Origin: Candidatus Yonathbacteria bacterium | GTDB taxonomy: Bacteria > Patescibacteriota > Minisyncoccia > Phycocordibacterales > UBA1550 | Assembly: GCA_003483855.1 (NCBI GenBank) | Contig: DMXP01000006.1 | Location: 24,280 to 88,279, forward strand | Direction: 5' to 3' | DNA length: 64,000 nt | Shown: one piece after another, positions 30,632-50,801 of the stretch | How the letters are laid out: each line of letters starts with the position of its first letter | How positions within the stretch are numbered: position 1 is the stretch's first letter | Program-made: the position numbers and the translations under genes | The notes under the pieces: model-generated | Database searches by the model: none | The model's input: the letters and a program-made list of their open reading frames with translations, nothing else | Told to the model about the DNA's origin: nothing

Positions 30632-30635
30632 ATGA

Positions 30636-32984: not shown

Positions 32985-32990
32985 CTGGTG

Positions 32991-33761: not shown

Positions 33762-33765
33762 TACC

Positions 33766-34662
33766 TCAGCCTAGCAGAGATTTTAATTTTCTAAAAATCC
33801 TAACGAAAATATTTTTAACCAGAAAAGAGCTATAGTTTTTGTCAGCTTCTTTGTTTACCATAATTGAATCTGGGTGAATTATTTTTGAAATTGTGCCAGT
33901 TGGCATTTTACTAAAAATATCATCTGTTTTTGTGTGAGTGGCATTTCCACCAAAACCAATATTCGAAACGAGGTTCACATTCGGGAGAATAGTTATTCCA
34001 TTATTGTCATATATTGAGTATACCAATTGTCCATCCCATGTATCAATTTTGTTCGCGTAAAGCTTGTCAAAAAGATTAAGCCAGTATTTTTGCATTTTCT
34101 TGTCCTTGAATATTTGCGCAATGCGATTGTTTTTTTTGAAATCAGGGTAGCTTTTCATTTCGATGTCGTATTCTTGCCAAGCACGACGCCATGTTGCCCA
34201 TCCCCAAATATGCGGAAAATTTGAAAAATAATAGCTTACATCTCCGTACATTTTTCCAAACTGAAAATTGTCTCCTGAAATCATTTTTACCTTTTCTGTA
34301 TTTCTATATTTACTTAATAATTCCTCACAAAAAGAAAAGAAGGATGGGTCTGGCAAGCAGTCATCTTCCAAAATAACCCCCTCTTCAACATTATCAAAAA
34401 ACCATGTGATTGCGCTGGAAACACCTTTTTTGCAACCTAGATTTTGATCTGAATATTTTCTATATACTTCACACGGCCAATCAATATTTTCTGTTACTTT
34501 TCTTGTCTCTTCACAAAGCTTCGCCTCGCCCTCTCTGTGCACACGTGGTCCATCGGCAGCAATATATAATTTTGCGGGCTTGATAGCTCGAATAGCTTCA
34601 AAAACCTGCTTTGCTACATCAGGACGATTGAAAACAATAAAAAGAACTGGTGTTTGATACAT
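33766..34662 (-). CDS. GT-A fold glycosyltransferase, family uncertain
   Basis: LFIVFNRPDV...KLYIAADGPR...ILEDDCLP...WGWATWRRAW. Confidence 0.45.
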   Translation of the reverse strand: MYQTPVLFIVFNRPDVAKQVFEAIRAIKPAKLYIAADGPRVHREGEAKLCEETRKVTENIDWPCEVYRKYSDQNLGCKKGVSSAITWFFDNVEEGVILEDDCLPDPSFFSFCEELLSKYRNTEKVKMISGDNFQFGKMYGDVSYYFSNFPHIWGWATWRRAWQEYDIEMKSYPDFKKNNRIAQIFKDKKMQKYWLNLFDKLYANKIDTWDGQLVYSIYDNNGITILPNVNLVSNIGFGGNATHTKTDDIFSKMPTGTISKIIHPDSIMVNKEADKNYSSFLVKNIFVRIFRKLKSLLG

Positions 34663-34664
34663 TT

Positions 34665-35435
34665 TTATTTTTTAATAAACCAGAAACATCCACACCCCCA
34701 ATTTTGTTCTTTAACCATATTTTTGTCAGCATTTGATATAAGTCCATATTTTTTGTAATCATCAGGAACTAAAGAAAATTCTTTGATGTCCATATCTGGG
34801 AACATGCTCACAACTTGCTCATACGAATAAATTCGGTGAGCGTTAAATTCTATCTTTGGTTTTCCAACGGGGACTACGAACACAAGCGAACCACCACTTT
34901 TTACCACCCTGGAGAGCTCCTTTGATGCCTTGATGTCCCCCGTAGAATCGAGACGATCTCCATACCTTCCAAGTCCGATATGCTCGACTGTGTGCATACA
35001 CGAAATTGATTCAATACTATTATCAATAAACGGCAATCTCATTAAGTCCCCCCTCTTGCACTCCAGATTATCAAACCTTATTTCAGCAGGCCGATAATCG
35101 TAAAAATCTACAGGAATAAATGCTGACATCATTGTAGAAAAAGTAACCGTGGAGGATATGTCTATGTGTTTGGTGGGATTTATTTTTTTTACTACCCGAC
35201 AAGCCCACGCGGGATGATAAACATAGTGGGGTTCAAATCCAGTTGTGGCGGTGTTGTCTAAAAGGCATGGAAATAAATCCGTAATATTTGTAGTGAATCT
35301 TTTGTCATCCTCTAGAAGTTTTTTGAAAATAAAATACTCATTAAAAAAGGACGGGTATCTAATCATTTTTTTAACTAAATGATAAATTGCTACTGCAATA
35401 GAATACTGAGCAAGAGTTTTTCTTATTTTTTCCAT
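34665..35435 (-). CDS. DUF268-family putative SAM-dependent methyltransferase (paralogue B)
   Basis: See paralogue A. Confidence 0.55.
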   Translation of the reverse strand: MEKIRKTLAQYSIAVAIYHLVKKMIRYPSFFNEYFIFKKLLEDDKRFTTNITDLFPCLLDNTATTGFEPHYVYHPAWACRVVKKINPTKHIDISSTVTFSTMMSAFIPVDFYDYRPAEIRFDNLECKRGDLMRLPFIDNSIESISCMHTVEHIGLGRYGDRLDSTGDIKASKELSRVVKSGGSLVFVVPVGKPKIEFNAHRIYSYEQVVSMFPDMDIKEFSLVPDDYKKYGLISNADKNMVKEQNWGCGCFWFIKK

Positions 35436-36580
35436 AATTTTTGAATAAATTGTACTATTTTAAAAGCAGTCAGGTTTCTAGTGTACCATTTATTAAGTAT
35501 TTTTGACTCTGTTGCTAACCCATTCAATATTTCCATTACGTGTTTTTCAATTAAATTTGATTCTGAACCAGACAGACCGACACTAGATCTTAATAATGAA
35601 AAATAAACAATTTTGGAATCTATTTTATTTTCGAGTAGTCTTTTACATACATCTAATGCCTCACTGTATTTTTTCTGCCTATAATTTACTATAAAATTAT
35701 CATATAACTCAGAAGGACGGTCGCTCGCCGTAACTTTTAAATCCTGCGCGACAAGTAAATTCTTTTCTGAATATAAGTCCTGTAGCAGAATTGAAAGATT
35801 TTCCTTCAAACTGGAATTTTTAAAGACATCATACGCAAGAATTTCTTTTTTTGCGTATGAGGAAAGTAGCCCCCAAATATCCTCAATTGCAAGGTAATAA
35901 TTAACTGAAAAATTCCCTTTATTAAATTCTCTTTCAAAATAGGATGGCTCACTACTATTTTGTCTGTGGTAGAAAAAAGTATCTGGGCAAACAAGAACAA
36001 GGTTCCCCGCCGAAAGATACCTCATTTCGAAACTCTGAGTGTCAAAACCGTGGTGTTCCGGATATTGAGATGTCTTCAAAAATGATTCCTTAGTGAAAAG
36101 AAAATTATCTAAAAGAATTCCGCTTCTATCAAAAATATTATCAATAATAATGGGCTTACCTAAAATGGTATTAAAATGGGGGGTAAACATTTTCTTACTC
36201 TTGGAATGGAAAAAACGCCTCTCGTAAAAAACTACTCCATCCGCCTTTTTCTCTAATAAAAAATGTACCATTTCTCTCAGAGAATTTGGATCAAGTATAT
36301 TATCGCTATCTAAGCAAAAAATGAGTTCCCCCTTTGAATTTTTTATACCAGTATTCCTTGCTGCTCCGCCACCTTTATTTTTATCATGGTAAAAAAGTTT
36401 TATTTCTGAATGTCTATCAGCAAGCTCCTGCATCACTTCCCTAGTCGCATCAGTTGACCCATCATCTACCATTACTATTTCAAAATTATCCAATCCTCCA
36501 GCAAAACAAGACCCTACCGCCTCTTCGAGGGTGTCTTGGCAATTATAGCAAGGCATTATGATTGAAAGAGTTGGTTTCAT
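35423..36580 (-). CDS. Family-2 glycosyltransferase
   Basis: LSIIMPCYNCQDTLEEAV...VMVDDGSTD...KNKGGGAARNTG. Confidence 0.8.
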   Translation of the reverse strand: MKPTLSIIMPCYNCQDTLEEAVGSCFAGGLDNFEIVMVDDGSTDATREVMQELADRHSEIKLFYHDKNKGGGAARNTGIKNSKGELIFCLDSDNILDPNSLREMVHFLLEKKADGVVFYERRFFHSKSKKMFTPHFNTILGKPIIIDNIFDRSGILLDNFLFTKESFLKTSQYPEHHGFDTQSFEMRYLSAGNLVLVCPDTFFYHRQNSSEPSYFEREFNKGNFSVNYYLAIEDIWGLLSSYAKKEILAYDVFKNSSLKENLSILLQDLYSEKNLLVAQDLKVTASDRPSELYDNFIVNYRQKKYSEALDVCKRLLENKIDSKIVYFSLLRSSVGLSGSESNLIEKHVMEILNGLATESKILNKWYTRNLTAFKIVQFIQKLWKK

Positions 36581-36587
36581 TCAGTGT

Positions 36588-37481
36588 TTAATCTTTTATG
36601 TTCCTAATCTTATCAGTCCAGTAATCCATATACAACGGTTCATAATTTGAGTTCTTTTTGATACTTTCAAATTTATCCGCCAAATCCTTTTCACTTAGAT
36701 TGTCTAGCTCGTGCCAATCTCTAACTGACCACAAAGGAATCCCAATTTTTTCAAAATAATCTATAGTTATAGAACTTTTAACTATTGGCACAGAACCTAT
36801 ATACAAAGCATCCCATGTTCTGTGTCCCTCTACACATGACCCAGGTGGTGAAGCTATAAATTTATATGTGGCAAGGAAGGGTAAATATTGAAAAAAATTC
36901 ATCCACCTTTTGTAAGTATCGGCTAATGGATTCACCTTAAGGACATCCATGGCTTGCTGTCTTTCTCCTAAATTGTTAACTACAGTAAACCCATAAAAAA
37001 TACGGTCCATCTTAGCAATATTTTTCATTATAACTCTATTAAAAATAGATGGTATTCCTAAAACATAGTAATGTTTATTTTCTATCCCAAGAGGTATCGG
37101 GACTACTTTTGAATTAGCTATTAGAACATTTATTCCGTACCATTTTATAATCTTGTCATCGGCCATACTAAATATTTCTTGGTCTATGACCGCATCACCA
37201 TTGTGAGTTACTAAAACATAAGGTGATTCTATCTTGGGATGAACCTCAGTAAGGAATTTTTTAATGTTACTATCTCCAACAAAAATAACATCTTTGTCTC
37301 TGACGCTACCTACATCAAAATCCTTCCGCAAATCATCATAAATATGATCTGCAAAATTGCGAAAACCATCTCCCGTTATATACGGATAACTTGATGGCCT
37401 AGGGTTAGATGAGTATCTTATAAGAATACGTCCTGCGATGCGATATATGCGAAATATTAGGTCAAATAATTTTTGCTTCAT
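36588..37481 (-). CDS. Exostosin/GT47-like glycosyltransferase
   Basis: C-terminal YKFIASPPGSCVEGHRTWDALYIGSVPIV matches the GT47 motif s.FCL.P.G....S.R..EA...GCvPVi. Confidence 0.45.
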   Translation of the reverse strand: MKQKLFDLIFRIYRIAGRILIRYSSNPRPSSYPYITGDGFRNFADHIYDDLRKDFDVGSVRDKDVIFVGDSNIKKFLTEVHPKIESPYVLVTHNGDAVIDQEIFSMADDKIIKWYGINVLIANSKVVPIPLGIENKHYYVLGIPSIFNRVIMKNIAKMDRIFYGFTVVNNLGERQQAMDVLKVNPLADTYKRWMNFFQYLPFLATYKFIASPPGSCVEGHRTWDALYIGSVPIVKSSITIDYFEKIGIPLWSVRDWHELDNLSEKDLADKFESIKKNSNYEPLYMDYWTDKIRNIKD

Positions 37482-38365
37482 AATCCTTTTAGCATTAAAT
37501 TTATGTGGTGCGACAACTTATTGTAAAAAATTACAATCATAATTAATTTTTTATAAATAAACTTAGGAATATATTCTCTTATCTTTGTTCTGAAAAAAAA
37601 CTTCAAATATGGGACCTCAGCTAGTGGAGCTACGGGCCTAAGTGCTCTTTTAGGATACAGCCCTCTTGATTGGAGTGAATAACCTTCACCACCGTCATCA
37701 ATTGAAGCAAAGAGTTCATATTTAGGGATTGCATAATGAATAGGGAGCCAGCTCGTATCTCCTCCCCCTTTTTCGAAATCAAAAGGACAATATTTTGAAT
37801 ATCCCCTTAATATCGGTGGTCCAATTTTAATTATTTTATTAAATAACGATATCAAAAAAATGCCGGCCATACTAATAATGTATGTCTTTTCTATATCTGT
37901 TTCTTTTAGCGATTCTTTATCAAGCAAGAATGTGGAAATATTTTTATACTCTCTTTTTTGTAGAGCGCTATATGGTTCTATCAATTTTCCAGAATTCCAC
38001 CATGAGTAGCACAGATATTCTGAGCAAGCATCCTTCATTTCTTTTAGGATTTCTTCGTATTTTTTTGTATCTACTAAATTTAGATGGTCCTCAATCCAAA
38101 AGAAAACAAAGTCGGTATTGATATCACCTAACATCAAACGAGTATCGCTGAACCACCCCTTCTCGCTCTCTAACATATATGGGATCAACTTATCACCTAA
38201 ATTATCATGTAAAAAGAATAACGTATCAAATTTATATTTTCCCCTTACGTTAATTACCCACTTTTCTGCTTCAATATCCTTGAATGACAAAAAGGAATCC
38301 TTCATCCTCAAGAATCTCTCTTCGTCATTTATATAAAAATTAGCGAATATAGTTAGGGTTGCCAT
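37478..38365 (-). CDS. Hypothetical protein (glycan-cluster member), AT-rich
   Basis: 295 aa, no recognisable motif. Translationally coupled to both neighbours. Confidence 0.45.
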   Translation of the reverse strand: MATLTIFANFYINDEERFLRMKDSFLSFKDIEAEKWVINVRGKYKFDTLFFLHDNLGDKLIPYMLESEKGWFSDTRLMLGDINTDFVFFWIEDHLNLVDTKKYEEILKEMKDACSEYLCYSWWNSGKLIEPYSALQKREYKNISTFLLDKESLKETDIEKTYIISMAGIFLISLFNKIIKIGPPILRGYSKYCPFDFEKGGGDTSWLPIHYAIPKYELFASIDDGGEGYSLQSRGLYPKRALRPVAPLAEVPYLKFFFRTKIREYIPKFIYKKLIMIVIFYNKLSHHINLMLKGL

Positions 38366-38368
38366 AAT

Positions 38369-39514
38369 TTACCAAAAAGTTGCCTGCGGATTTATATTCT
38401 CAAGGATATCTTTTTTTATTTCTTCATCATAACCTCCCGCCTTCAAAATCACAGTTACTGGACCCTTGTTTTTGAGCACCTTAGGCGATTCTATCACAAA
38501 ACTAGTACCGTACAATCTTTTACCATGTTTAATTGGGCTATTATCTAAAATAGCGATTATTTTATCAGTTTTGAGGCCGAATTGGATTAATGTCTGTGAA
38601 AATATATGTGCCCCAAATAAATATACTGGGTGATCACTTTTTTCTATTAAACTGTTCAGGACGGCAATCATTTCGAGGTGGTAGTTTATATAACCCATAA
38701 ACACCTTCTTGTACTCATTGTACTTGTTCTCTATTGAAACTAGATCAGACGAAACATCAGCTTTTTCTGTAGCATAAAAGATACTATGAGGGTCACCGTA
38801 ATATTGCTTTTCCAAAACAATAAAACCATTTTTTTCTAGTAGGTATTCAGTAAAGTATTCAGTTAGAAAAACCGTATGCTCAAAATTTAGGCAATTTGTC
38901 CAATTCAGTTTGAGCATTGGAAGAAGATTAGGGAAGGTGAAGATATGCCTATCTCCTTTTTTCATGAACTTTGAGATGTGCTCAATGAAAACTATCGGAT
39001 TATATGTGTGCTCAAATACATGCGAATGAATAATTGTGTCAAAATGTTCATCAATAACAAATTTATCATCAAACCAAGCTTTGATTACTCTTATTTGCGG
39101 ATCATCTATGTGCTCAGGATTCGGTTCAACTATTGTCCATTTTATATTTGAATCAAGAGTACGATAATTTTTTGCAATTTGGTCGTGGGCTCCACCTATC
39201 TCTAAAATATTTTTTGACTTATATTTATACAGAAATTGCGCGAAAGCAGTATAATGCTCTTTCCATATTTTCCCAGTGCCATCATTGTGTTGGTTCCTAT
39301 ATAAAATTTCCAGCGGGATTAATTTTCGTAGCTGAATCAATCCAGTGTCCTTACAAATATCCCAAACCATATCAGCTACAATATCTTCATCCTGCGGGGC
39401 ATCAACACACCCCATAAACACCGGAAAATTCTCAAACGTGTGTAAGTGCTCAAGATTCTCCTTGCCCGTAATCAGGCTTTTTGTTCTTTCATTAAACGTA
39501 TCAAGTTTTTTCAT
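38369..39514 (-). CDS. NDP-hexose C-methyltransferase-like (TylCIII/TcaB9-type SAM MTase with C-terminal domain)
   Basis: ...ILEIGGAHDQI... SAM motif plus a C-terminal ...YLFGAHIFSQT...ILDNSPIKHGK domain typical of sugar C-methyltransferases. Confidence 0.5.
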   Translation of the reverse strand: MKKLDTFNERTKSLITGKENLEHLHTFENFPVFMGCVDAPQDEDIVADMVWDICKDTGLIQLRKLIPLEILYRNQHNDGTGKIWKEHYTAFAQFLYKYKSKNILEIGGAHDQIAKNYRTLDSNIKWTIVEPNPEHIDDPQIRVIKAWFDDKFVIDEHFDTIIHSHVFEHTYNPIVFIEHISKFMKKGDRHIFTFPNLLPMLKLNWTNCLNFEHTVFLTEYFTEYLLEKNGFIVLEKQYYGDPHSIFYATEKADVSSDLVSIENKYNEYKKVFMGYINYHLEMIAVLNSLIEKSDHPVYLFGAHIFSQTLIQFGLKTDKIIAILDNSPIKHGKRLYGTSFVIESPKVLKNKGPVTVILKAGGYDEEIKKDILENINPQATFW

Positions 39515-39524
39515 ACACCGTTAC

Positions 39525-39917
39525 CTACTTTTGATTGTGTTCGCTTTCAATCTTTCCATCAGGTCTTTGTGTGTCATCCTCAATACGAACAACATCATCA
39601 ACTTCTGGTGTGGAAACCTCCTGTAGAATAATGTCAGTTATCGCAATAACTCGATGCTTTTTTGGTGGGGGTACATTAAAAAAATCTCCTGCTTTCATTT
39701 GAAATTTCTCCACGATACCTTCATCATTTTCTAGCCAAACTTCTGCTTCACCCTCTATAATATAGTTGGTTTCTCTTTTTTTACTATGGTACTGGAAGCT
39801 CGTTCTTGTGCCTGCATTTATATAAATGCGCTTATAGCAATAGGAATCGTTTAGCTCAAGCCAAACTTCTTTACCCCACGGTTTTGAGACCTCTTTGAAC
39901 GGATTATTCTTGTACAT
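39525..39917 (-). CDS. Cupin-domain protein (phosphomannose-isomerase-type cupin)
   Basis: PWGKEVWL...Y.KRIYINAGTRTSFQYHSKKRE; 130 aa. Confidence 0.55.
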   Translation of the reverse strand: MYKNNPFKEVSKPWGKEVWLELNDSYCYKRIYINAGTRTSFQYHSKKRETNYIIEGEAEVWLENDEGIVEKFQMKAGDFFNVPPPKKHRVIAITDIILQEVSTPEVDDVVRIEDDTQRPDGKIESEHNQK

Positions 39918-40923
39918 AGTGATTAATTACATCTGATATGATACTTATAATTGACTCTTTTATGTCCTCACGCTTCGCCAGTTCTTCAATAAGTAGAGCG
40001 TATTCTGGTGAGGCAAAATGATAATGCCCAGCAATAATAGAGCATAACATTTTATTGTCAGGAGTATTTTTATTCATCCATTTTTTCCACTTGCCACCTT
40101 GATAAACTTTTTCCAGGAAATCATCTAGTGGGATTCCATAAACAAGACATTTTGCTATCACAATTTGTGTTTGAATAACACCAAGCTGTGGAGCTATATT
40201 TACAGCATCGACAATTCCACCCCTCAGCTTAATTTCGTCCTTAGTAAGATAGTCTGCGTTATGCTCCTTTAGTTTAAGTCCTTTGCTCTTAAGCATTCTT
40301 GATACACTCTCAACAAATGGCTTATTAAATGACCCAGCCTGATTAATTTCCTTTATTACAGTACCTGTCTGGACTACATAAAATTCTGGGTCACAGAAAC
40401 TCTTAAAAAAATCAATCTCCCTCTCCCACTCTGCGATATTTGGAAGACTATAATTTGTCCCAGTATTCTCGTCTGTTCCTATTTCAATTTGTATGGTTGG
40501 CTTTAAATCCATGCAGTGCAAAATTGCTTTTTTAGTTGCCTCTAACCTCTCGCCATTTGTTCCTTTAAAATGGCAAAAATCTATATGAATTAAATCAAAA
40601 CCATTCTTAATATCATCCTCAATTGTCGAGTATGTATCTGTAATATCGTAGTTACCATTAAACCCCGGGCCACAGTGGTCTCGACAGATTTTAACCTCAG
40701 CATTTGGATTTTGATTCTTCATCTCACCTACAAATTCCATATATTCTTTAGTCGTCCAATTGTTTACATACCCACCAGAATAATCAACCTGATTTTTAGA
40801 AGCGATAAGCATCAACGGTTTGCGATTGAAATGGGAATACCTAAATACAGCCTCTATGATCTCTGGGCTCATTGGCCCAAGCGCTAAGGAAACTAGATTT
40901 TTATTGTTTTTAACAGGTATCAT
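39904..40923 (-). CDS. GatZ/KbaZ-family protein (tagatose-bisphosphate aldolase accessory / ketose-6-phosphate epimerase-like)
   Basis: ...LMLIASKNQVDYSGGYV...CRDHCGP... aligns with GatZ ...[21 protein letters not shown]...GGDHLGP. Confidence 0.5.
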   Translation of the reverse strand: MIPVKNNKNLVSLALGPMSPEIIEAVFRYSHFNRKPLMLIASKNQVDYSGGYVNNWTTKEYMEFVGEMKNQNPNAEVKICRDHCGPGFNGNYDITDTYSTIEDDIKNGFDLIHIDFCHFKGTNGERLEATKKAILHCMDLKPTIQIEIGTDENTGTNYSLPNIAEWEREIDFFKSFCDPEFYVVQTGTVIKEINQAGSFNKPFVESVSRMLKSKGLKLKEHNADYLTKDEIKLRGGIVDAVNIAPQLGVIQTQIVIAKCLVYGIPLDDFLEKVYQGGKWKKWMNKNTPDNKMLCSIIAGHYHFASPEYALLIEELAKREDIKESIISIISDVINHYVQE

Positions 40924-40941
40924 TATTGTGACATTTTATCA

Positions 40942-42537
40942 TTATTTAAGGGATTTATTAAGCATATTCCTTCCTAGGCTATGTAGTAACGTATCAAACG
41001 GCGCATTATGAAGTGGCGCCATATTAAGAAAGATCAAGGATGTGAGGATATTCACTTTTTTAACATCAAATTTATTGTCACGCAAAAACTTTTCGTAGTG
41101 TTCCTTTACCTCTAACAAGTCACTTTTTACGAAGAAATTGTAACAGGCATTATCATCACAAATACTTGAAGAGAACATGCCATCCTTAATTAGGGGGTAA
41201 GACAAGATCATGCCACCATATAGTTTTGCAAGGTCATAATACAAATCACCAAAATCAGTGAGTCCACCGAATTCATGCCGCCAATCAATAAGCAAGAACT
41301 TATCCTTGTCTGAGTGTGGGTCTTTGGGGATGAGGACATTATCAAATTGTAAATCTCCATGAAAATTAGAGGGTATGCCATTTGTTATATAATCCCAATC
41401 AATTTTGCTTAGTAGCTCATCTGTTGTTGGTATTTCTATCCCATTAATAAACCTACTTTCCTCGGTTGAGCCAATTTTATTATAAAACATTTGCAATCGC
41501 TTTTTTGTCTTAGTGCAGTAGAAGTCATAGCAAGCTTTAGTAAACTTATCTCTATCATTGTCTGATAAGTTAATCTCTTTCCATAGGTATTTTTTTGCCC
41601 AGACAAGAAAATCTGTAGCTATTTTAGGATCTAGGACACTATAGACAGTTTGACCGTCAACGAGAAGATAAGAGTAAAAATTATTTCTATACCCTTCAAT
41701 TGCTGGCGTCAAGCCGAGTAACGCATTGTTCGCGCGATAATTTCTTTTTTCAGCTACAGTTTTATCAGAAAAAAACTTAATCACACGATTGTTCACAAAA
41801 TATAAAAATTCATCTTCCTTGCTAAAATTAAATTTTTTCTCCTCACCGGAAAAATTTTTATTGGTTTCATTGTATTTAGAATCGGAACCAGTGTCGAACC
41901 ATGTAAAACCAACAGGTACAAGCCTCTTCTCAAGAAGCCCCTTCAAGCCGTCTGTCATTTGCAACTCATTGTCTCTAAGTTCTCTGTTTTGCTCAAGTGC
42001 TGAAAAAAACTCTTTGTGATCATGGATGCCAGCGAGACCAATAAAGGCAAACTTGTTGTCTGTTTTAATCTTTGTATCAAGTTGATATATAAGATTATTT
42101 TTCATTTTTATTGTGCAGTAAGCCTCTGTTTCGCGTACAGGAGCAACACCGATCCAGTTCTCATCTGGCAGTGGAACGTCTTCAAGCACAATGGTGTCTG
42201 CGGTAGAAAAAATAAACGGGCAATCCAAATATTTTTTGCATGCGAGAAGCGAGTACCCAGGCCCCGTCCCTGGACCTGTATATTTATCGACTTCAACAAA
42301 ATTAAAGATTCTATCTGGATAGGCTAGTTCTAGATAATCAATAACGGTATCTTTCTTGTGACCAACTGCAATCACTATCTCTGTATCAACTGGAAATTTC
42401 TCAATAATATACGAAATAACTGCTTTACTATTTATTGGCAAAATGCCCTTGTTGATAGACTCGGAAAAATGCCCCATCCTAGACCCTACTCCAGCAGTTA
42501 AAATACAAACCTTGTATTTTTCTTCTTTATTTTTCAT
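40942..42537 (-). CDS. Bifunctional sugar-1-phosphate nucleotidyltransferase (N) / APH-choline-kinase-fold sugar kinase (C)
   Basis: N-terminal KVCILTAGVGSRMG (NTP-transferase G-loop). C-terminal HGDLQFDNVLI...LIDWRHEFGGL...DLYYDLAKL (protein-kinase-like fold). Confidence 0.65.
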   Translation of the reverse strand: MKNKEEKYKVCILTAGVGSRMGHFSESINKGILPINSKAVISYIIEKFPVDTEIVIAVGHKKDTVIDYLELAYPDRIFNFVEVDKYTGPGTGPGYSLLACKKYLDCPFIFSTADTIVLEDVPLPDENWIGVAPVRETEAYCTIKMKNNLIYQLDTKIKTDNKFAFIGLAGIHDHKEFFSALEQNRELRDNELQMTDGLKGLLEKRLVPVGFTWFDTGSDSKYNETNKNFSGEEKKFNFSKEDEFLYFVNNRVIKFFSDKTVAEKRNYRANNALLGLTPAIEGYRNNFYSYLLVDGQTVYSVLDPKIATDFLVWAKKYLWKEINLSDNDRDKFTKACYDFYCTKTKKRLQMFYNKIGSTEESRFINGIEIPTTDELLSKIDWDYITNGIPSNFHGDLQFDNVLIPKDPHSDKDKFLLIDWRHEFGGLTDFGDLYYDLAKLYGGMILSYPLIKDGMFSSSICDDNACYNFFVKSDLLEVKEHYEKFLRDNKFDVKKVNILTSLIFLNMAPLHNAPFDTLLHSLGRNMLNKSLK

Positions 42538-43376
42538 AATTCTTTAAGAATATCTTTTACATACTTTGTCATCATTCTAAGTGGAGCTTTTATTCCTGTG
42601 TAAAGCGTAAACTGCGCAGCTGCTTGATATGTGGCCATTTCATATCCTGAAATTGTAATTTTCCCTGCTTTTTTTGCTGTTTTTATAAGCTTGGTATGCA
42701 TTGGTGAAACTACCACGTCCATTATAGCATGGTAGTTTTTAAGTTCGTCCTTATCAACGATCATGTCCTGATCTTTCGGGGTCATACCTACTGGCGTCGC
42801 ATTTATAAGTATATCAGCTTTAATTTCCTTACGAACGTTACTTGGACAATATTTTATGCTAAATTTTTTTGAAATCATGCGGGCTTTTTTCTCATCTCTA
42901 TTTGATAACGTTATTTCTTTACATAGGCCTCTTTTGAGAGCAACTATTATTGCTCTCGATGCACCGCCTGCTCCAATTATGTGGGCAGTTTTACCTTTTA
43001 TGGGGTAATATTTCTCAAGAGCCATTTCAACACCAACAACATCAGTGTTATATCCGGTAAGAATACCGTTTGTATTTACGATGGTATTTATAGCTCCAAT
43101 TTCTTTCGCGACAGGGTCTACAGCGTCTACATATTTATGTACAATTGTTTTATGTGGCATTGAGACACCGCAACCACGAATATCCAGTGCGCGCACCCCC
43201 AAAATTGCCTTATTTAAATTATCAGGAGTGGCACGAAAAGGCTTATAAATAAAATCTAGAGACAGAGCCTTGAATGTTCTATTGAATATGAGGCTTCCAA
43301 AATTTCCAGGAGCAGACGCAATTGAAATGCAGAATTTCGTATTTTTTGTAATCTTAATATTTTTCATAACAATCAA
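42534..43376 (-). CDS. Shikimate/quinate dehydrogenase family oxidoreductase (AroE-like) inside the glycan cluster
   Basis: ...SMPHK...GAINT...GYNTDVVG...GAGGASRA...; 280 aa. Confidence 0.65.
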   Translation of the reverse strand: MIVMKNIKITKNTKFCISIASAPGNFGSLIFNRTFKALSLDFIYKPFRATPDNLNKAILGVRALDIRGCGVSMPHKTIVHKYVDAVDPVAKEIGAINTIVNTNGILTGYNTDVVGVEMALEKYYPIKGKTAHIIGAGGASRAIIVALKRGLCKEITLSNRDEKKARMISKKFSIKYCPSNVRKEIKADILINATPVGMTPKDQDMIVDKDELKNYHAIMDVVVSPMHTKLIKTAKKAGKITISGYEMATYQAAAQFTLYTGIKAPLRMMTKYVKDILKEL

Positions 43377-43919
43377 TTACTGGAGAATATTTTTAAGATT
43401 ATGAGGTACTTCTAAGAACTTTTCCATTAAATGCAGGCACGCCTCCGCAACCGCTCCCTCTCCAGATTTTGCACTAGTTACAAAATCTGCTTTATTGCGT
43501 GCTAAATAAAAAGCATTTGCAGGCGCAATACTGTATGCTACATGCTCAAAAATCATCGCGTCATAAATACCATCTCCAACATATGCAGATTCACTAAGAT
43601 CAAAATTTTCTTCAAGCCACGAGAGCCTCGTTGCCTCACTTACGAGATTAAGCTTTAGCCCCATATCAATAGCAACTCTTTTTTCGGTTATTTTAAATCC
43701 TCTTTTATCTGCAGATATTGCGCAAACATTTATTAATTTACTAATCAGTTTGATGCCATCATTGTCATGTGGCCCAAAGATTTTTGCCAGTTTACCGTCT
43801 TTCGTGTATAGAAATTGGCCTGTTGTTAACACTCCATCAACATCAAGAATTAGGTTCTTGATAGTTTTTTCTTTGGCCTTCATAACCGCGATTATAGACC
43901 ATGGGGCTATATTTTGCAA
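43377..43919 (-). CDS. HAD-IIIA phosphatase, KdsC/YrbI family (sugar-acid phosphate phosphatase)
   Basis: LILDVDGVLTTG... and ...VAYVGDGIYD; 180 aa. Confidence 0.7.
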   Translation of the reverse strand: MQNIAPWSIIAVMKAKEKTIKNLILDVDGVLTTGQFLYTKDGKLAKIFGPHDNDGIKLISKLINVCAISADKRGFKITEKRVAIDMGLKLNLVSEATRLSWLEENFDLSESAYVGDGIYDAMIFEHVAYSIAPANAFYLARNKADFVTSAKSGEGAVAEACLHLMEKFLEVPHNLKNILQ

Positions 43920-44021
43920 TTTAAGTTGATGGCCACCACCATTTCGTCAAAGTAAGCATTAAATGAGAATTTAATAATTAGCCGATAAATACTTGTCCTA
44001 ACATATTTAATGTTGACAATT

Positions 44022-45572
44022 TTACTTTTCGCGCGCGATTGGAATTAATTTAACCCTTTTAAATAAAAGTTCCATGAATCGTTCTATATCTGCCCAATCC
44101 TGGGGCTCAAAAAAACCAAATAATTTATACAATGCTATATAAGTCAGTGCAGAAGTACCCCCCGCAATAAGCAGTGTTGTTAAACTAACAATGAAGTTAG
44201 CTATAAATAAGTTGAGGATTAACATTACAAAAGCAACGATAATATTATTCGTGATTATTTTTTTATAATAGCTTCTTCGGTTAGACAGGTTTAAATAACG
44301 AGTTTCAACATAAAAAAACAAATATGCTACTGGTAACACTGATATGAAATACGCCCAAGCGGCTCCCACTATTCCGTAAAGAGGCAACAGCGTAAAAAGT
44401 GCTATAGCATTAAGAATAGCCATGCACACAGAAGCAATAGATAAAAATTTTAATTTGCCGAGACCTAAAAGAAAGTTTGACAATGGCCCAAAAAGAGCGA
44501 GAATAAAATTAGTTAAAGCCAAAATAATAAGAACGCCTGATGCCCTGTCTGCAAAATCTGAACTAAGCCAATATTTCAAGATCTCATAAGAAAATGATAT
44601 CGACGTTATCGTTAGAGCTCCAGCAATTATTATCATCAGTCTAAAAGTTCTTATGTACATTGTTTTCATTCTAGATATTTCGTCTCCTCCGCTTAATTGT
44701 GACGTAGTTGGGAGCATGCTTACGGTCAAGGTATTAGTGATGCCGGGGATTTTTGCGGTTACGTTTCCAGGCATACTATAGTACGTAAGATTACTAGGGC
44801 CAACAAAAAACGGAATTACAATTTTATCAAGAGACGAGAGGGCCGTAGTTGCTATATTATTTACATATGCAATTAGTCCAAATCGGTAACAATTTATTAT
44901 TTCTTTTTTGTTCCATCCGAACTTAAAGGTTGCAATCGGTAAAAGTTTTCTCGCCTGCTGGAAAATAATTATTGAAAATACTGCTGCTACTATTAATTGC
45001 ACAATAAATATCTCGCGTATAGACCCGCCCATCTTAACCACAAACAGCATACCTAGACTAGAAAGCGTGATTGAAGTCATTCCTATCTTGTTGCTTATAT
45101 CAAAACGCTGAATGGCCGATAATATTAAGCTATATGTTGCGGTTATTATGTTAAAAAATAATATTCCACCAGCAAGTATAAACAATTTAAAATATTTCTC
45201 GTAGGCTAAAAAAGATGCCGGCAAGAAAGACGGGCCAAACAAGCCAATCATTACAGAAATAATTAAACTAAGTAGCCCAAGAATAAGGAACAGTGAGTTA
45301 GCAGAATGTGTTAGCCGCTTTATTGCTTCCTCATCTTTTTTGCCATAATAGTATGACATATACTTAAGGACTGCGACCCCAAGGCCAAGCTCAAAAAGTC
45401 CGAACAACCCTGCCGATGTGTTTATAAATAAATAAATACCATATTCTTTTACACCGAGGGTAAGGACAATTATTGGCGTTATAAAGAGAGTAAAAACGAT
45501 AGGCCAAAGATACCCCATTATGTTGTACGAACTATTTTTGAATGCTTTATATGTAAGTGAATCTTTTTCCAT
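44022..45572 (-). CDS. wzx: Wzx-type oligosaccharide flippase (MOP superfamily)
   Basis: 516 aa, about 12-14 TM helices, in polysaccharide-cluster context. Confidence 0.6.
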   Translation of the reverse strand: MEKDSLTYKAFKNSSYNIMGYLWPIVFTLFITPIIVLTLGVKEYGIYLFINTSAGLFGLFELGLGVAVLKYMSYYYGKKDEEAIKRLTHSANSLFLILGLLSLIISVMIGLFGPSFLPASFLAYEKYFKLFILAGGILFFNIITATYSLILSAIQRFDISNKIGMTSITLSSLGMLFVVKMGGSIREIFIVQLIVAAVFSIIIFQQARKLLPIATFKFGWNKKEIINCYRFGLIAYVNNIATTALSSLDKIVIPFFVGPSNLTYYSMPGNVTAKIPGITNTLTVSMLPTTSQLSGGDEISRMKTMYIRTFRLMIIIAGALTITSISFSYEILKYWLSSDFADRASGVLIILALTNFILALFGPLSNFLLGLGKLKFLSIASVCMAILNAIALFTLLPLYGIVGAAWAYFISVLPVAYLFFYVETRYLNLSNRRSYYKKIITNNIIVAFVMLILNLFIANFIVSLTTLLIAGGTSALTYIALYKLFGFFEPQDWADIERFMELLFKRVKLIPIAREK

Positions 45573-45662
45573 TTTTGAAAGTATACCATGTCATTAAACT
45601 TGAGGCATCGGCTTGAACAGGCTCCATGAAACCAAAAGAAATGCTAGAATACGGAGAACATC

Positions 45663-46430
45663 ATGAAATTTAGCATAATTACCCCAACATACAAACGACG
45701 GGACTTAATAGACCGAACCATTCAGTCAGTACTACACCAATCCTACATTGACTGGGAAATGATTATCGTAAATGATTCCCCAGATGATTCTTCGTACCAG
45801 ACGCTTCCATCTTCTCTTACTGATCCCAGAATTCACTACTATGTGAATGATGTAAACTGTGGCGTGAACTATTCGCGAAACCGTGCACTCGGTAACATTG
45901 CGAAAGATTCAGACTGGGTTATTTTTTTGGATGATGATGATTATCTCGCGCCTGATGCACTCGCAACCTTACACGAGCTCGCTATCGCGCACCCTGATTG
46001 CAAGTGGTTTGTCACCAATCGCGCATACGCAAATGAAGTGCCTGTCACAAGATATCCTGAACCGGAAACATGGTATTCGTACATAAAAGACGTTCTCATT
46101 TTAAAGCGGTGCAGAGGTGATGTAACACACTGTATAAAAACGAGCCTTCTCACCAATATTCGATATTCAAAATACATCAAGCAAGCCGAGGAATGGTTAT
46201 TTTACTATCAAATTGCTCTTCGTGAAAAAATGTTTTATCACAACCATAACAGCACACTCACCGATGGATATGATGAGGTCTCTGGGCTTAACTTCCGCAA
46301 ACGCACACATGCCGAGCAAATCGAAACACTTCGTGCGTTTATTCGCGAAGGCCACGAGCTATGCCTACTTCACCACCCAACATTTCTTATTTATTTGGGA
46401 ATGAGGATACTCCGAATTATTTTGAAATAA
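45663..46430 (+). CDS. Family-2 glycosyltransferase
   Basis: FSIITPTYKRRDLIDRTIQSVLHQSY...IIVNDSPDD...; 255 aa. Confidence 0.75.
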   Translation: MKFSIITPTYKRRDLIDRTIQSVLHQSYIDWEMIIVNDSPDDSSYQTLPSSLTDPRIHYYVNDVNCGVNYSRNRALGNIAKDSDWVIFLDDDDYLAPDALATLHELAIAHPDCKWFVTNRAYANEVPVTRYPEPETWYSYIKDVLILKRCRGDVTHCIKTSLLTNIRYSKYIKQAEEWLFYYQIALREKMFYHNHNSTLTDGYDEVSGLNFRKRTHAEQIETLRAFIREGHELCLLHHPTFLIYLGMRILRIILK

Positions 46431-46475
46431 AAAAACCCGACAAAAAATCTGTCGGGTTTTTATTAAGACTTAGAA

Positions 46476-47420
46476 CTACCGGTAGGTCTCGGATTCAATG
46501 CACTCTATGAGCCCTTGGTCGAGGGTGAAATTAGGACGCCACCCTAATTCCCTTAACCTAGAGTCATCGATAGACTGATCCTTACTTTCTTGGAAAAAAC
46601 CAAGTTTTTCAACTATTTCAATACCTCCATCGTAACCCATTAATGAACAAATTTTTTCTACCAGGCTATTTATGGAAATAGCTCCAGAGCCACCGATACA
46701 AAAAATCTCGCCGTTCTTAGCTTTTTCCTCAATGAGCAAAATGGCATCAATTAGGTCATCCACATAAACAAATTCCCTTATAGCATCTTTAACGCTGGAA
46801 TACACCTGTGGCCTTTCACCGTTGTTAACAGACCTAATCGTTGTTGGTATAACTCTGCTAATATTTGAATCATTCGGGCCATACAAATTGGGACATCGAA
46901 TAATATTTATTGGCAGATTGTAACTTGAAAAATAATTCTGAGCAACGATATCCTGACAAGCCTTAGTGCACTCGTATGTATACTTAGGTTTAAGAAGGGT
47001 CTCCTCAGTGTATGGTGATGGAGTATCTCCATACACTTTGGAAGACGTTGATACAATGATTTTTCTAACAGTCTCCATCCCCACTGTTCGAACCGCCTCC
47101 AAAAGATTAACAGTGCCCATCACATTGTTCATGTAAGCACGCACAGGCTCATCAAAACATTCCTTAAGGATGGAGTTGGATGCGAAATGATAAATAGTAT
47201 TAATCTCATGTACACTTATAATTTCACACAGAGAATCATAATCATTCAAATCCCCCTTTATTGCAACAACATTATCTGCTCCGTAGGAACGTATCGGCTT
47301 GTTGTGATGATACAACAAAACAATTTTGCCATCCTTAGTATCATCAAGCTTCAGCAATCGAGAGGTTAAACTTAACCCCATAAATCCGGCTGCGCCAGTT
47401 ATTAATATGTTGTTTTTCAT
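46476..47420 (-). CDS. NAD-dependent epimerase/dehydratase (extended SDR)
   Basis: ILITGAAGFMG Rossmann motif and ...YGPN...; 314 aa. Confidence 0.75.
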   Translation of the reverse strand: MKNNILITGAAGFMGLSLTSRLLKLDDTKDGKIVLLYHHNKPIRSYGADNVVAIKGDLNDYDSLCEIISVHEINTIYHFASNSILKECFDEPVRAYMNNVMGTVNLLEAVRTVGMETVRKIIVSTSSKVYGDTPSPYTEETLLKPKYTYECTKACQDIVAQNYFSSYNLPINIIRCPNLYGPNDSNISRVIPTTIRSVNNGERPQVYSSVKDAIREFVYVDDLIDAILLIEEKAKNGEIFCIGGSGAISINSLVEKICSLMGYDGGIEIVEKLGFFQESKDQSIDDSRLRELGWRPNFTLDQGLIECIESETYR

Positions 47421-47568
47421 TTTGTTTAACCCCTTTCAATTAAATAGCCTCGGTAAAATGTAGTCAGATTGGCAAAATTCAGCCCCATTACACATATGTG
47501 AGAAATTGCTCATATTCTCAATTCCTGCCTTAATATACATTATTTTTGAATAATAGTAAGATGTACAG

Positions 47569-48294
47569 ATGAAAGGAATTATTTTAGCAGGAGGGGCAGG
47601 AAAAAGACTGAGCCCCCTTACTCGGGTAACATCAAAACAGCTTTTACCTATCTACAACCGGCCGATGATCTATTACCCGCTTAATACACTCATTAAGGCT
47701 GGTATTAAAGAAATTTTAATTATTATCGCGCCCGAAAAGGCGGGTGAATTTTTGAATCTCCTTGGATCAGGAAAGGACTTTGGTGTAAAATTCACGTATG
47801 AAATTCAGGACAAGCCGAGGGGGCTCCCTGAGGCATTTATTATTGGGGAAAATTTTTTAGACAACGATGACGTGGTTATGATTTTAGGAGACAACATCTT
47901 TGAAAAAGATTTATCAGAAGATATTCGTTCATTCAAAAGCGGAGGTCGCGTTTTTGCGGTTGAGGTTGAAGACCCGGAACGCTCAGGAGTTGTTGAGTTT
48001 GATAAAAATATGAAGGTTCTTTCAATAGAGGAGAAACCTGAACATCCAAAAAGCAATTTTATTATTCCAGGGCTTTTTATTTACGATTCACGCGTTATTC
48101 AGTTCGCAAAAGAACTTGAACCGAGCAGGCGTGGGGAGCTTGAAATAACTGATATTCATAAAAAATATCTAGAACTAGGAGAACTTGACGTTAAAAAATT
48201 CTCGGGTGAATGGATTGACGCGGGAACGTTTGACTCACTCCTAAGGGCTAATCAGTTAGCTCAGGAGAAGTTGCACAAGAATTTGGTTATATAA
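47569..48294 (+). CDS. Glucose-1-phosphate nucleotidyltransferase (RmlA/RfbF-like, short form)
   Basis: MKGIILAGGAGKRLSPLT...QLLPIYNRPMIYYPL; 241 aa. Confidence 0.75.
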   Translation: MKGIILAGGAGKRLSPLTRVTSKQLLPIYNRPMIYYPLNTLIKAGIKEILIIIAPEKAGEFLNLLGSGKDFGVKFTYEIQDKPRGLPEAFIIGENFLDNDDVVMILGDNIFEKDLSEDIRSFKSGGRVFAVEVEDPERSGVVEFDKNMKVLSIEEKPEHPKSNFIIPGLFIYDSRVIQFAKELEPSRRGELEITDIHKKYLELGELDVKKFSGEWIDAGTFDSLLRANQLAQEKLHKNLVI

Positions 48295-49181: not shown

Positions 49182-49483
49182 AATTTTAATAGTATAGCAC
49201 TACAAGTCCATAAAAAGACAGGCGACGAAGTCCGCGAAGGACAATTTTTTCATACAAAATCAGCAATGACACAATGCGAGGAGAATGTTGAATGTTGAAT
49301 GGGTGAGGAAGGGTGTTATTGCATACTACGGCATCTTTAATTTTGGGTATTCAAAACCACAAATTCTGTCAAATTTACGGTTTTGGAAACCATAAATTCC
49401 GCTAATTCCCCTAAATAGGTAGATTTACGGGAGTACCGCTCCCCGAAATTGACAAAATGTGGGGAGTTTGCTATCATAAAACT

Positions 49484-50617
49484 ATGAAGATCCCAAGAAT
49501 ATACAACAATATAGAAAAATATCTTCACCCGAACAAGGTTCTGGTTATTTTTGGCCCGCGACGAGTGGGCAAAACAACTCTCATTACTGATTTCCTTTCA
49601 ACATATAAAGGAAAATATCGCTTAGAGTCTGGGGATGACATTCGAGCGCGGGAGATCCTTGGTTCAGAAGACCTTTCTTTGCTAAAAGAATACGCAACGG
49701 GATACGACCTCATTGTCATCGACGAAGCGCAACGCATACCCAAGATCGGCTGGGGGCTAAAGTTGCTTGTTGACCATGTTCCGGGGATTCGTATCATCGC
49801 AACAGGATCATCATCGTTTGAACTTGCTGGACAAGTTGGAGAACCGCTTACCGGACGCAAACACACAATGACACTCTTCCCTCTTTCAGAAATTGAGCTA
49901 CTCGCCTATTATAACAACAATTCGTATGACCTTTCTTCAAAGCTTGCCGAGCGACTTGTGTTCGGTGGCTATCCAGAAGTTATTTCTGCAAAAAATACAC
50001 TTGAGCGAAAAGATGCTCTCGGTGAAATCGTCGGGTCGTATCTTCTCAAAGATATCATGGAGTTGGACCGTGTTCGCAATACAAAGATATTGAGTAACCT
50101 TGTTCGTCTCATTGCTTTTCAAATTGGAAACGAGGTTTCGTTGACCGAAATCGCGACAACCCTTGGCATAGACAGAAAAACGGTTGCTCGGTATATTGAC
50201 TTGCTTGAAAAATCCTTCATCCTCTACAATCTTCGTGGCTTTAGCCGTAACCTAAGAAAGGAAGTGACCAAAAAAAGCAAATATTACTTTTACGACATTG
50301 GTGTCCGTAATGCCATTATTTCAAACTTCAACAATCTTTCTGAGCGTGATGATGTGGGAGCGTTATGGGAAAATTTTTTAGTTATTGAGCGACTTAAAAC
50401 ACGCGTTTACAAAAACATCTCCGCGAATGACTACTTTTGGCGCACATGGGACCAAAACGAGGTTGACTTCGTTGAGGAACGCGAAGGAAAACTTTTTGGC
50501 TATGAATTTAAGTGGAAAAAGGCAAAAGCAAAAGAGCCAAAAAATTGGCGCGGAACATACCCGGAAGCAACTTACGGGGTGATCACTCCAGAAAATTATC
50601 TCCAAATATTAGAGTAG
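49484..50617 (+). CDS. AAA+ ATPase with DUF4143 (COG1373 family)
   Basis: Walker A FGPRRVGKTT and Walker B LIVIDEAQ, with a C-terminal DUF4143-like region. Start moved to MKIPRIY; the ORF could start at 49457. Confidence 0.65.
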   Translation: MKIPRIYNNIEKYLHPNKVLVIFGPRRVGKTTLITDFLSTYKGKYRLESGDDIRAREILGSEDLSLLKEYATGYDLIVIDEAQRIPKIGWGLKLLVDHVPGIRIIATGSSSFELAGQVGEPLTGRKHTMTLFPLSEIELLAYYNNNSYDLSSKLAERLVFGGYPEVISAKNTLERKDALGEIVGSYLLKDIMELDRVRNTKILSNLVRLIAFQIGNEVSLTEIATTLGIDRKTVARYIDLLEKSFILYNLRGFSRNLRKEVTKKSKYYFYDIGVRNAIISNFNNLSERDDVGALWENFLVIERLKTRVYKNISANDYFWRTWDQNEVDFVEEREGKLFGYEFKWKKAKAKEPKNWRGTYPEATYGVITPENYLQILE

Positions 50618-50733
50618 ATTGGAACAAAAACCCAACCATAATTGGAATGATTACGAGTGCCCATCTCAAATATGTTACATTACGCACGCCTATTGAAACA
50701 ACAAAAACGCTGGTATATGTATGGCAAACGTCT

Positions 50734-50801
50734 CCTTAAACCCTAAAGTCAAAAAGGCCGTTGAATACTTTTCCTTTCATTGCTTTGGCGATGAGAGACC
50801 A
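50734..50801. repeat. 68-bp direct repeat, copy 1 (orphan duplicate of the GT4 gene 3' end)
   Basis: ccttaaaccctaaagtcaaaaaggccgttgaatacttttcctttcattgctttggcgatgagMgacca is repeated at 51807-51874 with 1 mismatch. Confidence 0.85.

Follow-up and report, generated by a model that had tools for sequence, protein, structure and literature searches.

Uridine diphosphate (UDP)-arabinofuranose is made in phage HY126 by a pathway, described in 2026, that comprises an arabinose-5-phosphate isomerase (API) and the enzymes AfhE and AfhF (PMC13326640). The pathway starts from ribulose-5-phosphate, from which the isomerase yields arabinose-5-phosphate; AfhE, which has an N-terminal pyrophosphorylase and a C-terminal kinase, converts this to the 1,5-bisphosphate, the HAD phosphatase AfhF removes the 5-phosphate, and AfhE then makes UDP-arabinofuranose (PMC13326640). 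The counterparts of this pathway are gp55, gp52:53 and gp51 in RB69 and gp83, gp82 and gp81 in DLP3 (PMC13326640). A route of the AfhE/AfhF type has so far been shown only for a phage DNA sugar. Here we describe a cassette of five minus-strand genes (43919 to 39525) in a 64,000-nucleotide (nt) stretch of Candidatus Yonathbacteria DNA (contig DMXP01000006.1, positions 24,280 to 88,279; hereafter the window). We propose, with a probability of roughly 55% and on the basis of sequence and analogy, that the cassette encodes a de novo, phosphomutase-independent route from a central ketose phosphate to a nucleoside diphosphate (NDP)-activated aldose for the nearby glycan genes. What would be new here is activation of the AfhE/AfhF or HldE/GmhB type extended by GatZ-like and SdhL-like enzymes.

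The nucleotidyltransferase-kinase fusion protein of the window resembles AfhE in that it likewise carries an N-terminal transferase, here MurU/LicC-like, and a C-terminal APH-like kinase. A HAD phosphatase is encoded next to it and a putative ketose-phosphate/aldose-phosphate isomerase alongside, as for AfhE and AfhF, although the partner families differ. Profile comparisons by hhalign matched the full-length fusion to ORF047 of Enterococcus phage 9183 over both domains (probability 99.5%, E = 1e-22), and the kinase profile to RB69 gp52 with the alignment on the catalytic motifs (probability 78%, E = 2e-5). The likeness to AfhE is one of homology to these phage nucleotidyltransferase-kinases, HY126 AfhE being known to us by description. 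The isomerase of the cassette is a cupin of the phosphomannose isomerase (PMI) type, whereas that of the phage is an API of the SIS fold. The phosphatase of the cellular cassette is KdsC-like; a viral version of the cassette uses the same mini-HAD type as the phage system. The cassette also adds two obligatory enzymes, the GatZ-like protein and a reductase, and sits by surface-glycan genes rather than thymidylate-synthase-like DNA-modification genes.

The NDP-heptose route (GmhA, HldE or HddA plus HddC, and GmhB) employs an isomerase, an anomeric kinase, a HAD phosphatase and a nucleotidyltransferase. It shares with the cassette the same four-step logic through a 1,omega-bisphosphate, and HldE also fuses a kinase to a transferase; however, other families are used throughout (SIS isomerase, PfkB/GHMP kinase, cytidylyltransferase-like transferase and HAD-IIIA phosphatase), and the cassette is not a member of that route. 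Kinases are also combined with nucleotidyltransferases in the LicCA fusion of Treponema and in FKP, and LicCA has the APH/choline-kinase fold and the transferase-then-kinase order of the cassette fusion. A first-pass annotation, made from the sequence of the window, had pointed to the kinase-plus-transferase logic of AmgK/MurU or LicA/LicC, and our comparisons support that likeness, but AmgK/MurU, LicA/LicC and FKP use free substrates obtained by salvage and manage without a phosphatase, isomerase, epimerase or reductase. In ManC, AlgA and XanB (type II PMI/guanosine diphosphate (GDP)-mannose pyrophosphorylases), a PMI cupin is likewise associated with a sugar-1-phosphate transferase, and in the viral cassette the two are directly fused. 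The cassette differs from these in its reversed domain order, in having a kinase and a phosphatase in the place of phosphomannomutase, and in its extra epimerase/aldolase and reductase steps, because of which plain GDP-mannose is an unlikely product.

Layout and distribution of the cassette

The cassette is part of a glycan island that also encodes a flippase and glycosyltransferases. A Wzx/MATE-type flippase precedes it, and a same-strand run consisting of a C-methyltransferase-like gene, two genes without a family match and glycosyltransferases continues downstream to about 33 kb, with no room for terminators. The genes and domains of the cassette and the first gene of the downstream run are as follows (aa, amino acids).

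43377..43919, minus strand: KdsC/YrbI-like HAD phosphatase open reading frame (ORF), 180 aa; probable start at ATG 43883, giving 168 aa
42534..43376, minus strand: SdhL-like reductase of the shikimate dehydrogenase fold, 280 aa
40942..42537, minus strand: nucleotidyltransferase-kinase fusion gene, 531 aa
41848..42537, minus strand: N-terminal domain of the fusion, predicted sugar-1-phosphate nucleotidyltransferase, about aa 1-230
40942..41832, minus strand: C-terminal domain of the fusion, predicted APH/choline-kinase-like kinase, about aa 236-531
41338-41361, minus strand: kinase catalytic loop HGDLQFDN, inside the C-terminal domain of the fusion
39904..40923, minus strand: GatZ/KbaZ-fold class II aldolase-like metalloenzyme, 339 aa
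39525..39917, minus strand: type II phosphomannose-isomerase-like cupin, 130 aa
38369..39514, minus strand: C-methyltransferase-like gene, with Pfam Methyltransf_23 and a C-methyltransferase C-terminal domain

The five genes are closely packed: the reductase and fusion genes overlap by 4 nt, an 18-nt spacer separates the fusion gene from the GatZ-like gene, and the cupin gene shares its first 14 nt with the end of the GatZ-like gene. The first-pass annotation had placed five genes at 39904-43919; the five genes exist, but that range holds four of them and 14 nt of the cupin gene (39525-39917). The true start of the HAD gene is likely ATG 43883. A promoter-like match at 43919-43891 was not above chance, and the counts from the promoter and terminator scan were likewise at chance level. 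The closest relative, a Candidatus Yonathbacteria metagenome-assembled genome (MAG), showed an identical gene order and a fusion protein of 94% identity. A Coxiella-type O-antigen locus (virenose or dihydrohydroxystreptose) was rejected, the closest relatives being Patescibacteria, with the Yonathbacteria MAG at 94%.

Homologues at 60-90% identity numbered over 2,000 for the fusion protein and for the GatZ-like protein alike; of those with a name, almost all came from Patescibacteria and DPANN archaea. Further carriers were Marinimicrobia, a Nitrosarchaeum MAG, a 'Gammaproteobacteria' MAG and a low-GC marine bacterial lineage, and a Saccharibacteria MAG (L009) carried the cassette as well. Using the window proteins, we mapped 80 metagenomic loci, 40 of which had enough flank for counting; the GatZ-like and cupin genes were each present in 40/40 and the HAD gene in 38/40 of these. 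An SdhL-like reductase was found in 15 loci and a classical 240-aa short-chain dehydrogenase/reductase (SDR) in 20, together 35 of the 40, and the two never occurred in the same locus (Fisher p = 8e-7). The cupin subtype co-varied with the reductase family among related loci. A neighbourhood search of the kind that the first-pass annotation had suggested thus found the arrangement again in other genomes, and the genes do associate as proposed there, far more often than chance would allow; the conserved unit, however, consists of six functions rather than five genes, and its phosphatase and reductase slots are filled by differing families according to lineage. Since unrelated or remodelled families have taken over both the phosphatase and the reductase slot, it is functions rather than particular proteins that were selected, and the retention of six functions despite these swaps is the signature of one selected pathway. 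The first-pass annotation had called a shikimate-dehydrogenase-fold enzyme and a GatZ homologue both uncommon inside a glycan cluster; in one sense this is wrong, as precisely this combination occurs widely among Patescibacteria, DPANN archaea and viral contigs.

In rare cases, members of the cassette are also fused to one another or to other proteins, as at the following loci.

L063 4189-6945: transferase-kinase-GatZ-like fusion, 918 aa in one ORF
L039 7448-8728: SdhL-like-cupin fusion, 426 aa in one ORF
L025 2943-4490: fusion of an inositol-monophosphatase (IMPase)-like protein with a second transferase, 515 aa

No transporter was conserved alongside the cassette in the inspected loci, and Gmd accompanied it in just 8 of 92 loci. 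Our literature search found no characterised member of the cassette, no paper on the cassette, and nothing direct on SdhL or GatZ in glycan clusters. Where the sources named the proteins, the name was 'tagatose-bisphosphate aldolase non-catalytic subunit' for the GatZ-like protein and 'choline kinase' for the fusion protein; the annotation of the reductase would be 'shikimate dehydrogenase'.

A scan of IMG/VR yielded 76 contigs of uncultivated viruses with full-length relatives (L096-L171), some of them 170-300 kb in length; examples of the viral cassette lie at L096 5307-9089 and L120 3400-9498. A mini-HAD of about 120 aa takes the place of the KdsC-like HAD in 67/76 viral loci, and the cupin, transferase and kinase form a single ORF in 66/72; a truncated 206-aa SdhL-like protein and a GatZ-like protein complete the viral version. 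The viral cupin is 70-83% identical to that of the window, and the remaining viral parts are about 30-40% identical to their window counterparts. One viral cassette was located directly downstream of a tail-fibre-like gene, and others amid glycan genes. Over L096 1-12000 the GC skew was very strongly positive (+0.2 to +0.38), and all inspected genes were on a single strand. More distant full-length homologues of the fusion were found in Enterococcus phages, flanked by a small HAD gene on one side and a hypothetical gene on the other and near thymidylate-synthase-like genes. Positions 3893-8845 of the cultured Enterococcus phage 9183 (L172, MT939241) encode, in a row, a thymidylate kinase, a thymidylate-synthase homologue, a dUTPase, a 114-aa HAD, the nucleotidyltransferase-kinase homologue and a 406-aa hypothetical protein, and this row looks like a putative DNA sugar-hypermodification module of the AfhE/AfhF type.

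Predicted activities of the encoded enzymes

The five family assignments of the first-pass annotation (KdsC-like HAD, AroE fold, nucleotidyltransferase-kinase fusion, GatZ fold and PMI-type cupin) were borne out by sequence, fold and motif matches. The N-terminal half of the fusion protein is predicted, by both sequence and fold, to be a sugar-1-phosphate nucleotidyltransferase. It matched Pfam NTP_transf_3, its best sequence match in the PDB was LicC (E = 1.5e-5), and its AlphaFold model, with a predicted local distance difference test (pLDDT) score of 85, matched the folds of RmlA, GalU, GDP-mannose pyrophosphorylase, MurU and HddC. In the window protein, both the GVGSR loop and the FTWFDTG motif (W-x-D-T-G) are intact. 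The kinase domain contains the invariant motifs H393-G-D-L-Q-F-D-N400, D418-W-R (LIDWR) and YYDLAK, and weak Pfam APH matches were obtained for 9/9 fusion members tested.

The arginine of the G-x-G-x-R loop was lost in 26 loci, including L001, L019, L020, L025, L028, L032, L035, L040, L041, L044, L046, L049, L055, L068 and L088. An extra transferase with an intact loop was carried by 18 of the 26, compared with 5 of the 67 intact-loop loci (p = 4e-9), and these extra paralogues were either stand-alone or fused to an IMPase. The loss of the loop arginine in the fused transferase is compensated by an extra transferase gene; the arginine-less domain may survive as a structural partner.

The HAD protein contains the motifs DVDGV and GDGIYD, and its best PDB matches were KdsC/YrbI proteins (E = 3e-16). 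It scored 78 bits against TIGR01670, under the cut-off of 107, and no KdsA- or KdsB-like gene was detected among the window genes given a family. The KdsC-like HAD would strip the distal (omega) phosphate from a sugar.

The best PDB match of the reductase was SdhL of H. influenzae (HI0607; 1npy, E = 1.5e-48), in a fold family that also holds 5-ketofructose reductase (7cok). Its score was above the cut-off of the AroE model TIGR00507 (213.8 against 200.2) and under that of the SdhL equivalog NF009202 (238 against 306 bits). Alignment to E. coli AroE showed that the equivalents of K65, N86/T87, D102 and Q244 are retained, and K76 and D112, which correspond to the catalytic Lys and Asp of AroE, are invariant. 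AroE Ser14, Ser16 and Tyr215, which we take to be the shikimate carboxylate clamp, are replaced by Ala, Gly and Val in the window protein, and these positions are unconserved across the cassette homologues; an N-F-G motif, shared with SdhL, stands in place of the H-S-x-S of the AroE clamp. The first-pass annotation had considered a sugar acid as the substrate, but this is unlikely because the reductase has lost the three clamp residues while keeping the catalytic Lys and Asp. To judge from these residues and scores, the reductase is AroE-like but should not be filed as AroE, and is SdhL-like rather than SdhL proper; probably, it is an NAD(P)-dependent ketoreductase with a non-carboxylate substrate. 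It differs from SdhL in its nucleotide-sugar context and in being replaceable by an SDR. A housekeeping aroE was rejected on account of the lost clamp and of the SDR replacement in related loci.

GatZ and KbaZ have been reported as fructose-6-phosphate/tagatose-6-phosphate 4-epimerases that use retro-aldol/aldol chemistry, and roles have been described for residues D87-H88, E171 and H257 of GatZ (PMC11907403). The AlphaFold model of the GatZ-like protein (pLDDT 85) gave the GatZ-family structures 3txv and 2fiq as its top Foldseek matches, with template modelling (TM) scores of 0.78-0.80 and E values of about 1e-14, followed by class II fructose-bisphosphate (FBP)/tagatose-bisphosphate (TBP) aldolases and tagatose 4-epimerase. 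Residues D82-H83, E147 and H221, which align with the GatZ metal and catalytic residues named above, are invariant in 25 family members, and the H-x-x-D-Y loop is closer to that of the epimerase GatZ than to the H-G-x-S phosphate loop found in GatY/FBA. The chance that the protein is an unrelated TIM barrel, which the first-pass annotation had wished to see checked, can be dismissed: with this fold similarity and the metal ligands kept, it is a true GatZ-fold relative. The match to Pfam PF08013 (29.2 against a cut-off of 26.7) covered the N-terminal 100 residues only, and the NCBIfam KbaZ/GatZ models scored the protein at 18-30 bits against cut-offs of 569-707. Compared with GatZ/KbaZ, the Atu3167-type tagatose-6-phosphate 4-epimerases and UxaE, the cassette protein has the same fold (TM about 0.8), Asp-His/Glu/His metal site and loop, but it is only 15-20% identical and about 80 residues shorter, and its setting is anabolic and glycan-linked rather than catabolic. 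Sequence comparison places it in a separate, shorter subfamily, and we propose that it acts either as a ketose-phosphate C4 epimerase (retro-aldol/aldol) or as a true aldolase. UxaE, a tagaturonate/fructuronate epimerase, works with the aldose-ketose isomerase UxaC and the ketoreductase UxuB, and this trio performs the same three chemistries as are predicted for the cassette.

The cupin scored 36.7 bits against Pfam MannoseP_isomer (PF01050), above the cut-off of 23.6. Its metal ligands Q42, H44, E49 and H88 are invariant across the cupin subtypes, as are many Arg and Lys residues; ligands of the PMI type together with many invariant basic residues fit a phosphorylated substrate, and a ketose-phosphate to aldose-phosphate isomerase is proposed.

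A proposed route and its alternatives

The back half of the proposed route, in which the cupin, kinase, HAD and transferase form an NDP-sugar, is its firmer part and is rather likely to be correct, judging from sequence and from the analogous systems. The PMI-type cupin would convert a ketose omega-phosphate to an aldose omega-phosphate, the APH-like kinase domain would add an anomeric phosphate to give the aldose 1,omega-bisphosphate, the KdsC-like HAD would cleave the omega-phosphate, and the transferase domain would join the aldose 1-phosphate to a nucleoside triphosphate. This order follows phage AfhE/AfhF, with the same logic as GmhA/HldE/GmhB. The front half is doubtful. The GatZ-like protein, as a Zn enzyme, might reshape the starting ketose phosphate by C4 epimerisation or aldol building, in the simplest case from fructose-6-phosphate to tagatose-6-phosphate, and the SdhL-like reductase would then use NAD(P)H to remove the extra carbonyl of the intermediate immediately ahead of the isomerase step. 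We agree with the first-pass annotation that the substrate is not readable from sequence. Tentatively, and at somewhat less than even odds, the product could be a nucleotide-activated sugar or sugar alcohol new to any organism, formed by GatZ-type, SdhL-type and AfhE/AfhF-like steps, which would be a surface-glycan building block shared by Patescibacteria, DPANN archaea, some marine microbes and their phages and would give the SdhL branch its first physiological role.

Several observations weigh against this route. The enzyme activities in it are predicted from sequence. The reductase, although present in 35/40 loci, has no necessary role in the simplest scheme from fructose-6-phosphate through tagatose-6-phosphate to an aldose-6-phosphate, and since it lacks a job there, the front half must be incomplete or wrong: either the GatZ-like enzyme makes a dicarbonyl or longer sugar, or the product is a polyol. 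The GatZ signature residues K279, E44 and C20 are not kept in the GatZ-like protein, which has N242 and I40 at the positions of K279 and E44, and N242 aligns with the Asn of true aldolases. The kinase domain had no PDB sequence match to any solved kinase, and its assignment draws on motifs, weak Pfam matches and phage homologues, of which AfhE, compared by description, is the only one characterised biochemically. LicC, the best PDB sequence match of the transferase domain, is a phospho-alcohol enzyme rather than one acting on a sugar 1-phosphate. Finally, the HAD is of the KdsC-like rather than the AfhF/GmhB-like subtype, and an order in which the phosphatase acts first and the kinase phosphorylates the free sugar is possible.

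The alternative that survives best, although unlikely, is that the product is an NDP- or cytidine diphosphate (CDP)-activated polyol: the GatZ-like protein would epimerise, the cupin and reductase would isomerise and reduce, the HAD would dephosphorylate, and re-phosphorylation and cytidylylation would follow. Analogies exist in celery mannitol synthesis (PMI, mannose-6-phosphate reductase and phosphatase), in LicA/LicC, and in the pneumococcal Gtp1-3 system for CDP-2-glycerol. All six functions, including the core reductase, would receive a job typical of their families, the SdhL-cupin fusion would suit successive isomerase and reductase steps, and the gat genes of E. coli couple GatZ with the ketose-phosphate/alditol-phosphate dehydrogenase GatD. 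The match to LicC, the LicCA-like domain order and the choline-kinase-like IDW...YD.A motif of the kinase point the same way. However, neither the window nor the inspected loci contained a LicD match or any other polyol-phosphate transferase of the TagF or CDP-alcohol type, the neighbours being ordinary glycosyltransferases. The transferase model best matched sugar-1-phosphate transferases and the W-x-D-T-G motif is present; moreover, the nearest characterised relative yields an NDP-aldose, and the direct fusion of the viral cupin to the nucleotidyltransferase-kinase suggests that the kinase takes over the product of the isomerase.

Somewhat less probable still is a scheme with the same back half in which the GatZ-like protein, working as a true aldolase or in the manner of a transaldolase, forms a new skeleton or a dicarbonyl ketose phosphate, for example by adding a dihydroxyacetone unit to a 2-oxo-aldehyde or a longer aldose phosphate, and the reductase trims a carbonyl to give an L-hexose, a 6-deoxy sugar or a higher-carbon sugar. 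This would account for the constant need for a ketoreductase and for its coupling to the isomerase. The alignment of N242 with the aldolase Asn instead of GatZ K279 agrees with it, as do the 5-ketofructose reductase within the shikimate dehydrogenase fold, the lost carboxylate clamp, compatible with a keto-sugar that is neutral or phosphorylated, and the activity of the KdsC family on omega-phosphates of long-chain sugars. Against these stand the GatZ-like H-x-x-D-Y loop and the fact that the cassette encodes no source of the acceptor aldehyde, and the scheme is purely inferential.

Salvage of a free ketose, aldose or sugar acid, with the other genes interconverting free sugars, is improbable. 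The first-pass annotation had favoured a salvage-type activation; kinase-transferase pairs such as AmgK/MurU are indeed salvage enzymes, MurU was among the fold matches, and Patescibacteria and DPANN archaea are scavengers. A dedicated phosphatase is nevertheless kept in cells and viruses despite its replacement by another family, the cupin belongs to the PMI type, which acts on sugar phosphates, and has many invariant basic residues, and GatZ-family enzymes use ketose 6-phosphates. The characterised AfhE/AfhF relative begins from a central sugar phosphate, ribulose-5-phosphate, and passes through a 1,omega-bisphosphate; the absence of a conserved transporter in the inspected loci and the loss of the carboxylate-binding residues of the reductase likewise argue against salvage. 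That the adjacency is incidental, with a housekeeping AroE and a PMI for GDP-mannose or GDP-fucose sharing no pathway, could appeal to the TIGR00507 score and to the Gmd, GDP-fucose-synthase-like and GT11 genes at 22.9-26.3 kb, but it is effectively refuted by the 40/40 co-occurrence and the multiple fusions, and also disfavoured by the lost clamp, the mutually exclusive swap of the reductase for an SDR and the rarity of Gmd beside the cassette.

To our knowledge, Patescibacteria and DPANN archaea, which are ultra-small and host-attached, account for much of microbial diversity, and their surface glycans are almost wholly uncharted. The 60-90% identity across bacteria and archaea and the phage copies point to a sugar that is important on the cell surface and may take part in host or phage recognition. 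Identification of the product would add a new nucleotide-sugar pathway, and solving the cassette would give functions to two orphan groups, the SdhL-like dehydrogenases and the short GatZ-like proteins. If the proposed route from a ketose phosphate to an NDP-aldose is correct, cells widely use the kinase-then-phosphatase substitute for a phosphomutase that was recently described for a DNA sugar of phage; if the product is ordinary (NDP-talose or NDP-galactose), the result would still be a useful correction of annotation for the more than 2,000 homologues of each protein.

Other genes of the window

The C-methyltransferase-like gene directly follows the cupin gene in the window, in about one-fifth of the related loci and in 8 viral loci; it is an accessory tailoring gene outside the core. 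The two genes downstream of it, at 37478-38365 and 36588-37481, had no significant family or PDB match. Proteins of the WavE family or family-less proteins of 295 aa adjoin the cassette in several loci (L004/L005 6166-7128, L009 10656-11645, and 37478-38365 in the window), and are candidates for glycosyltransferases that use the product. No similarity was detected between the WavE-family and the family-less 295-aa neighbours, and the product of 37478-38365 showed none to the WavE-like or the marine 275-aa neighbours in other loci.

The window also encodes MurC and, at 22941-26312, a GDP-L-fucose set that consists of a GDP-mannose 4,6-dehydratase (599 bits), a Nudix hydrolase, a GDP-fucose-synthase-like epimerase/reductase and a GT11 protein (alpha-1,2-fucosyltransferase family). 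No GDP-mannose pyrophosphorylase or phosphomannomutase family match was found among the scanned window genes. A role for the cassette in supplying GDP-mannose to the Gmd and fucose genes was rejected in view of the presence of Gmd in only 8/92 loci. Within the glycan island, genes at 27908-31670 and 22211-22879 encode a PfkB-family kinase fragment, the E1 beta and E1 alpha subunits of a thiamine-diphosphate-dependent dehydrogenase, a Zn alcohol dehydrogenase and a separate cytidylyltransferase-like protein; these may constitute a second unusual sugar or side-chain pathway, and none of them was found in the 92 related loci. At 49457-51795 and 53675-57173, an AAA_14/DUF4143 ATPase and a Fic/DOC protein bearing a helix-turn-helix interrupt the glycan genes, and a lamin-tail/PKD-domain protein and a TraD/VirD4-like coupling ATPase are encoded further on.

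The G+C content was about 35% over positions 32000-48000 of the window, which contain the cassette and its neighbours, compared with 44-46% for most of the flanking sequence. This low G+C content fits horizontal acquisition of the cassette region, with which the very high identity of its proteins across domains agrees.

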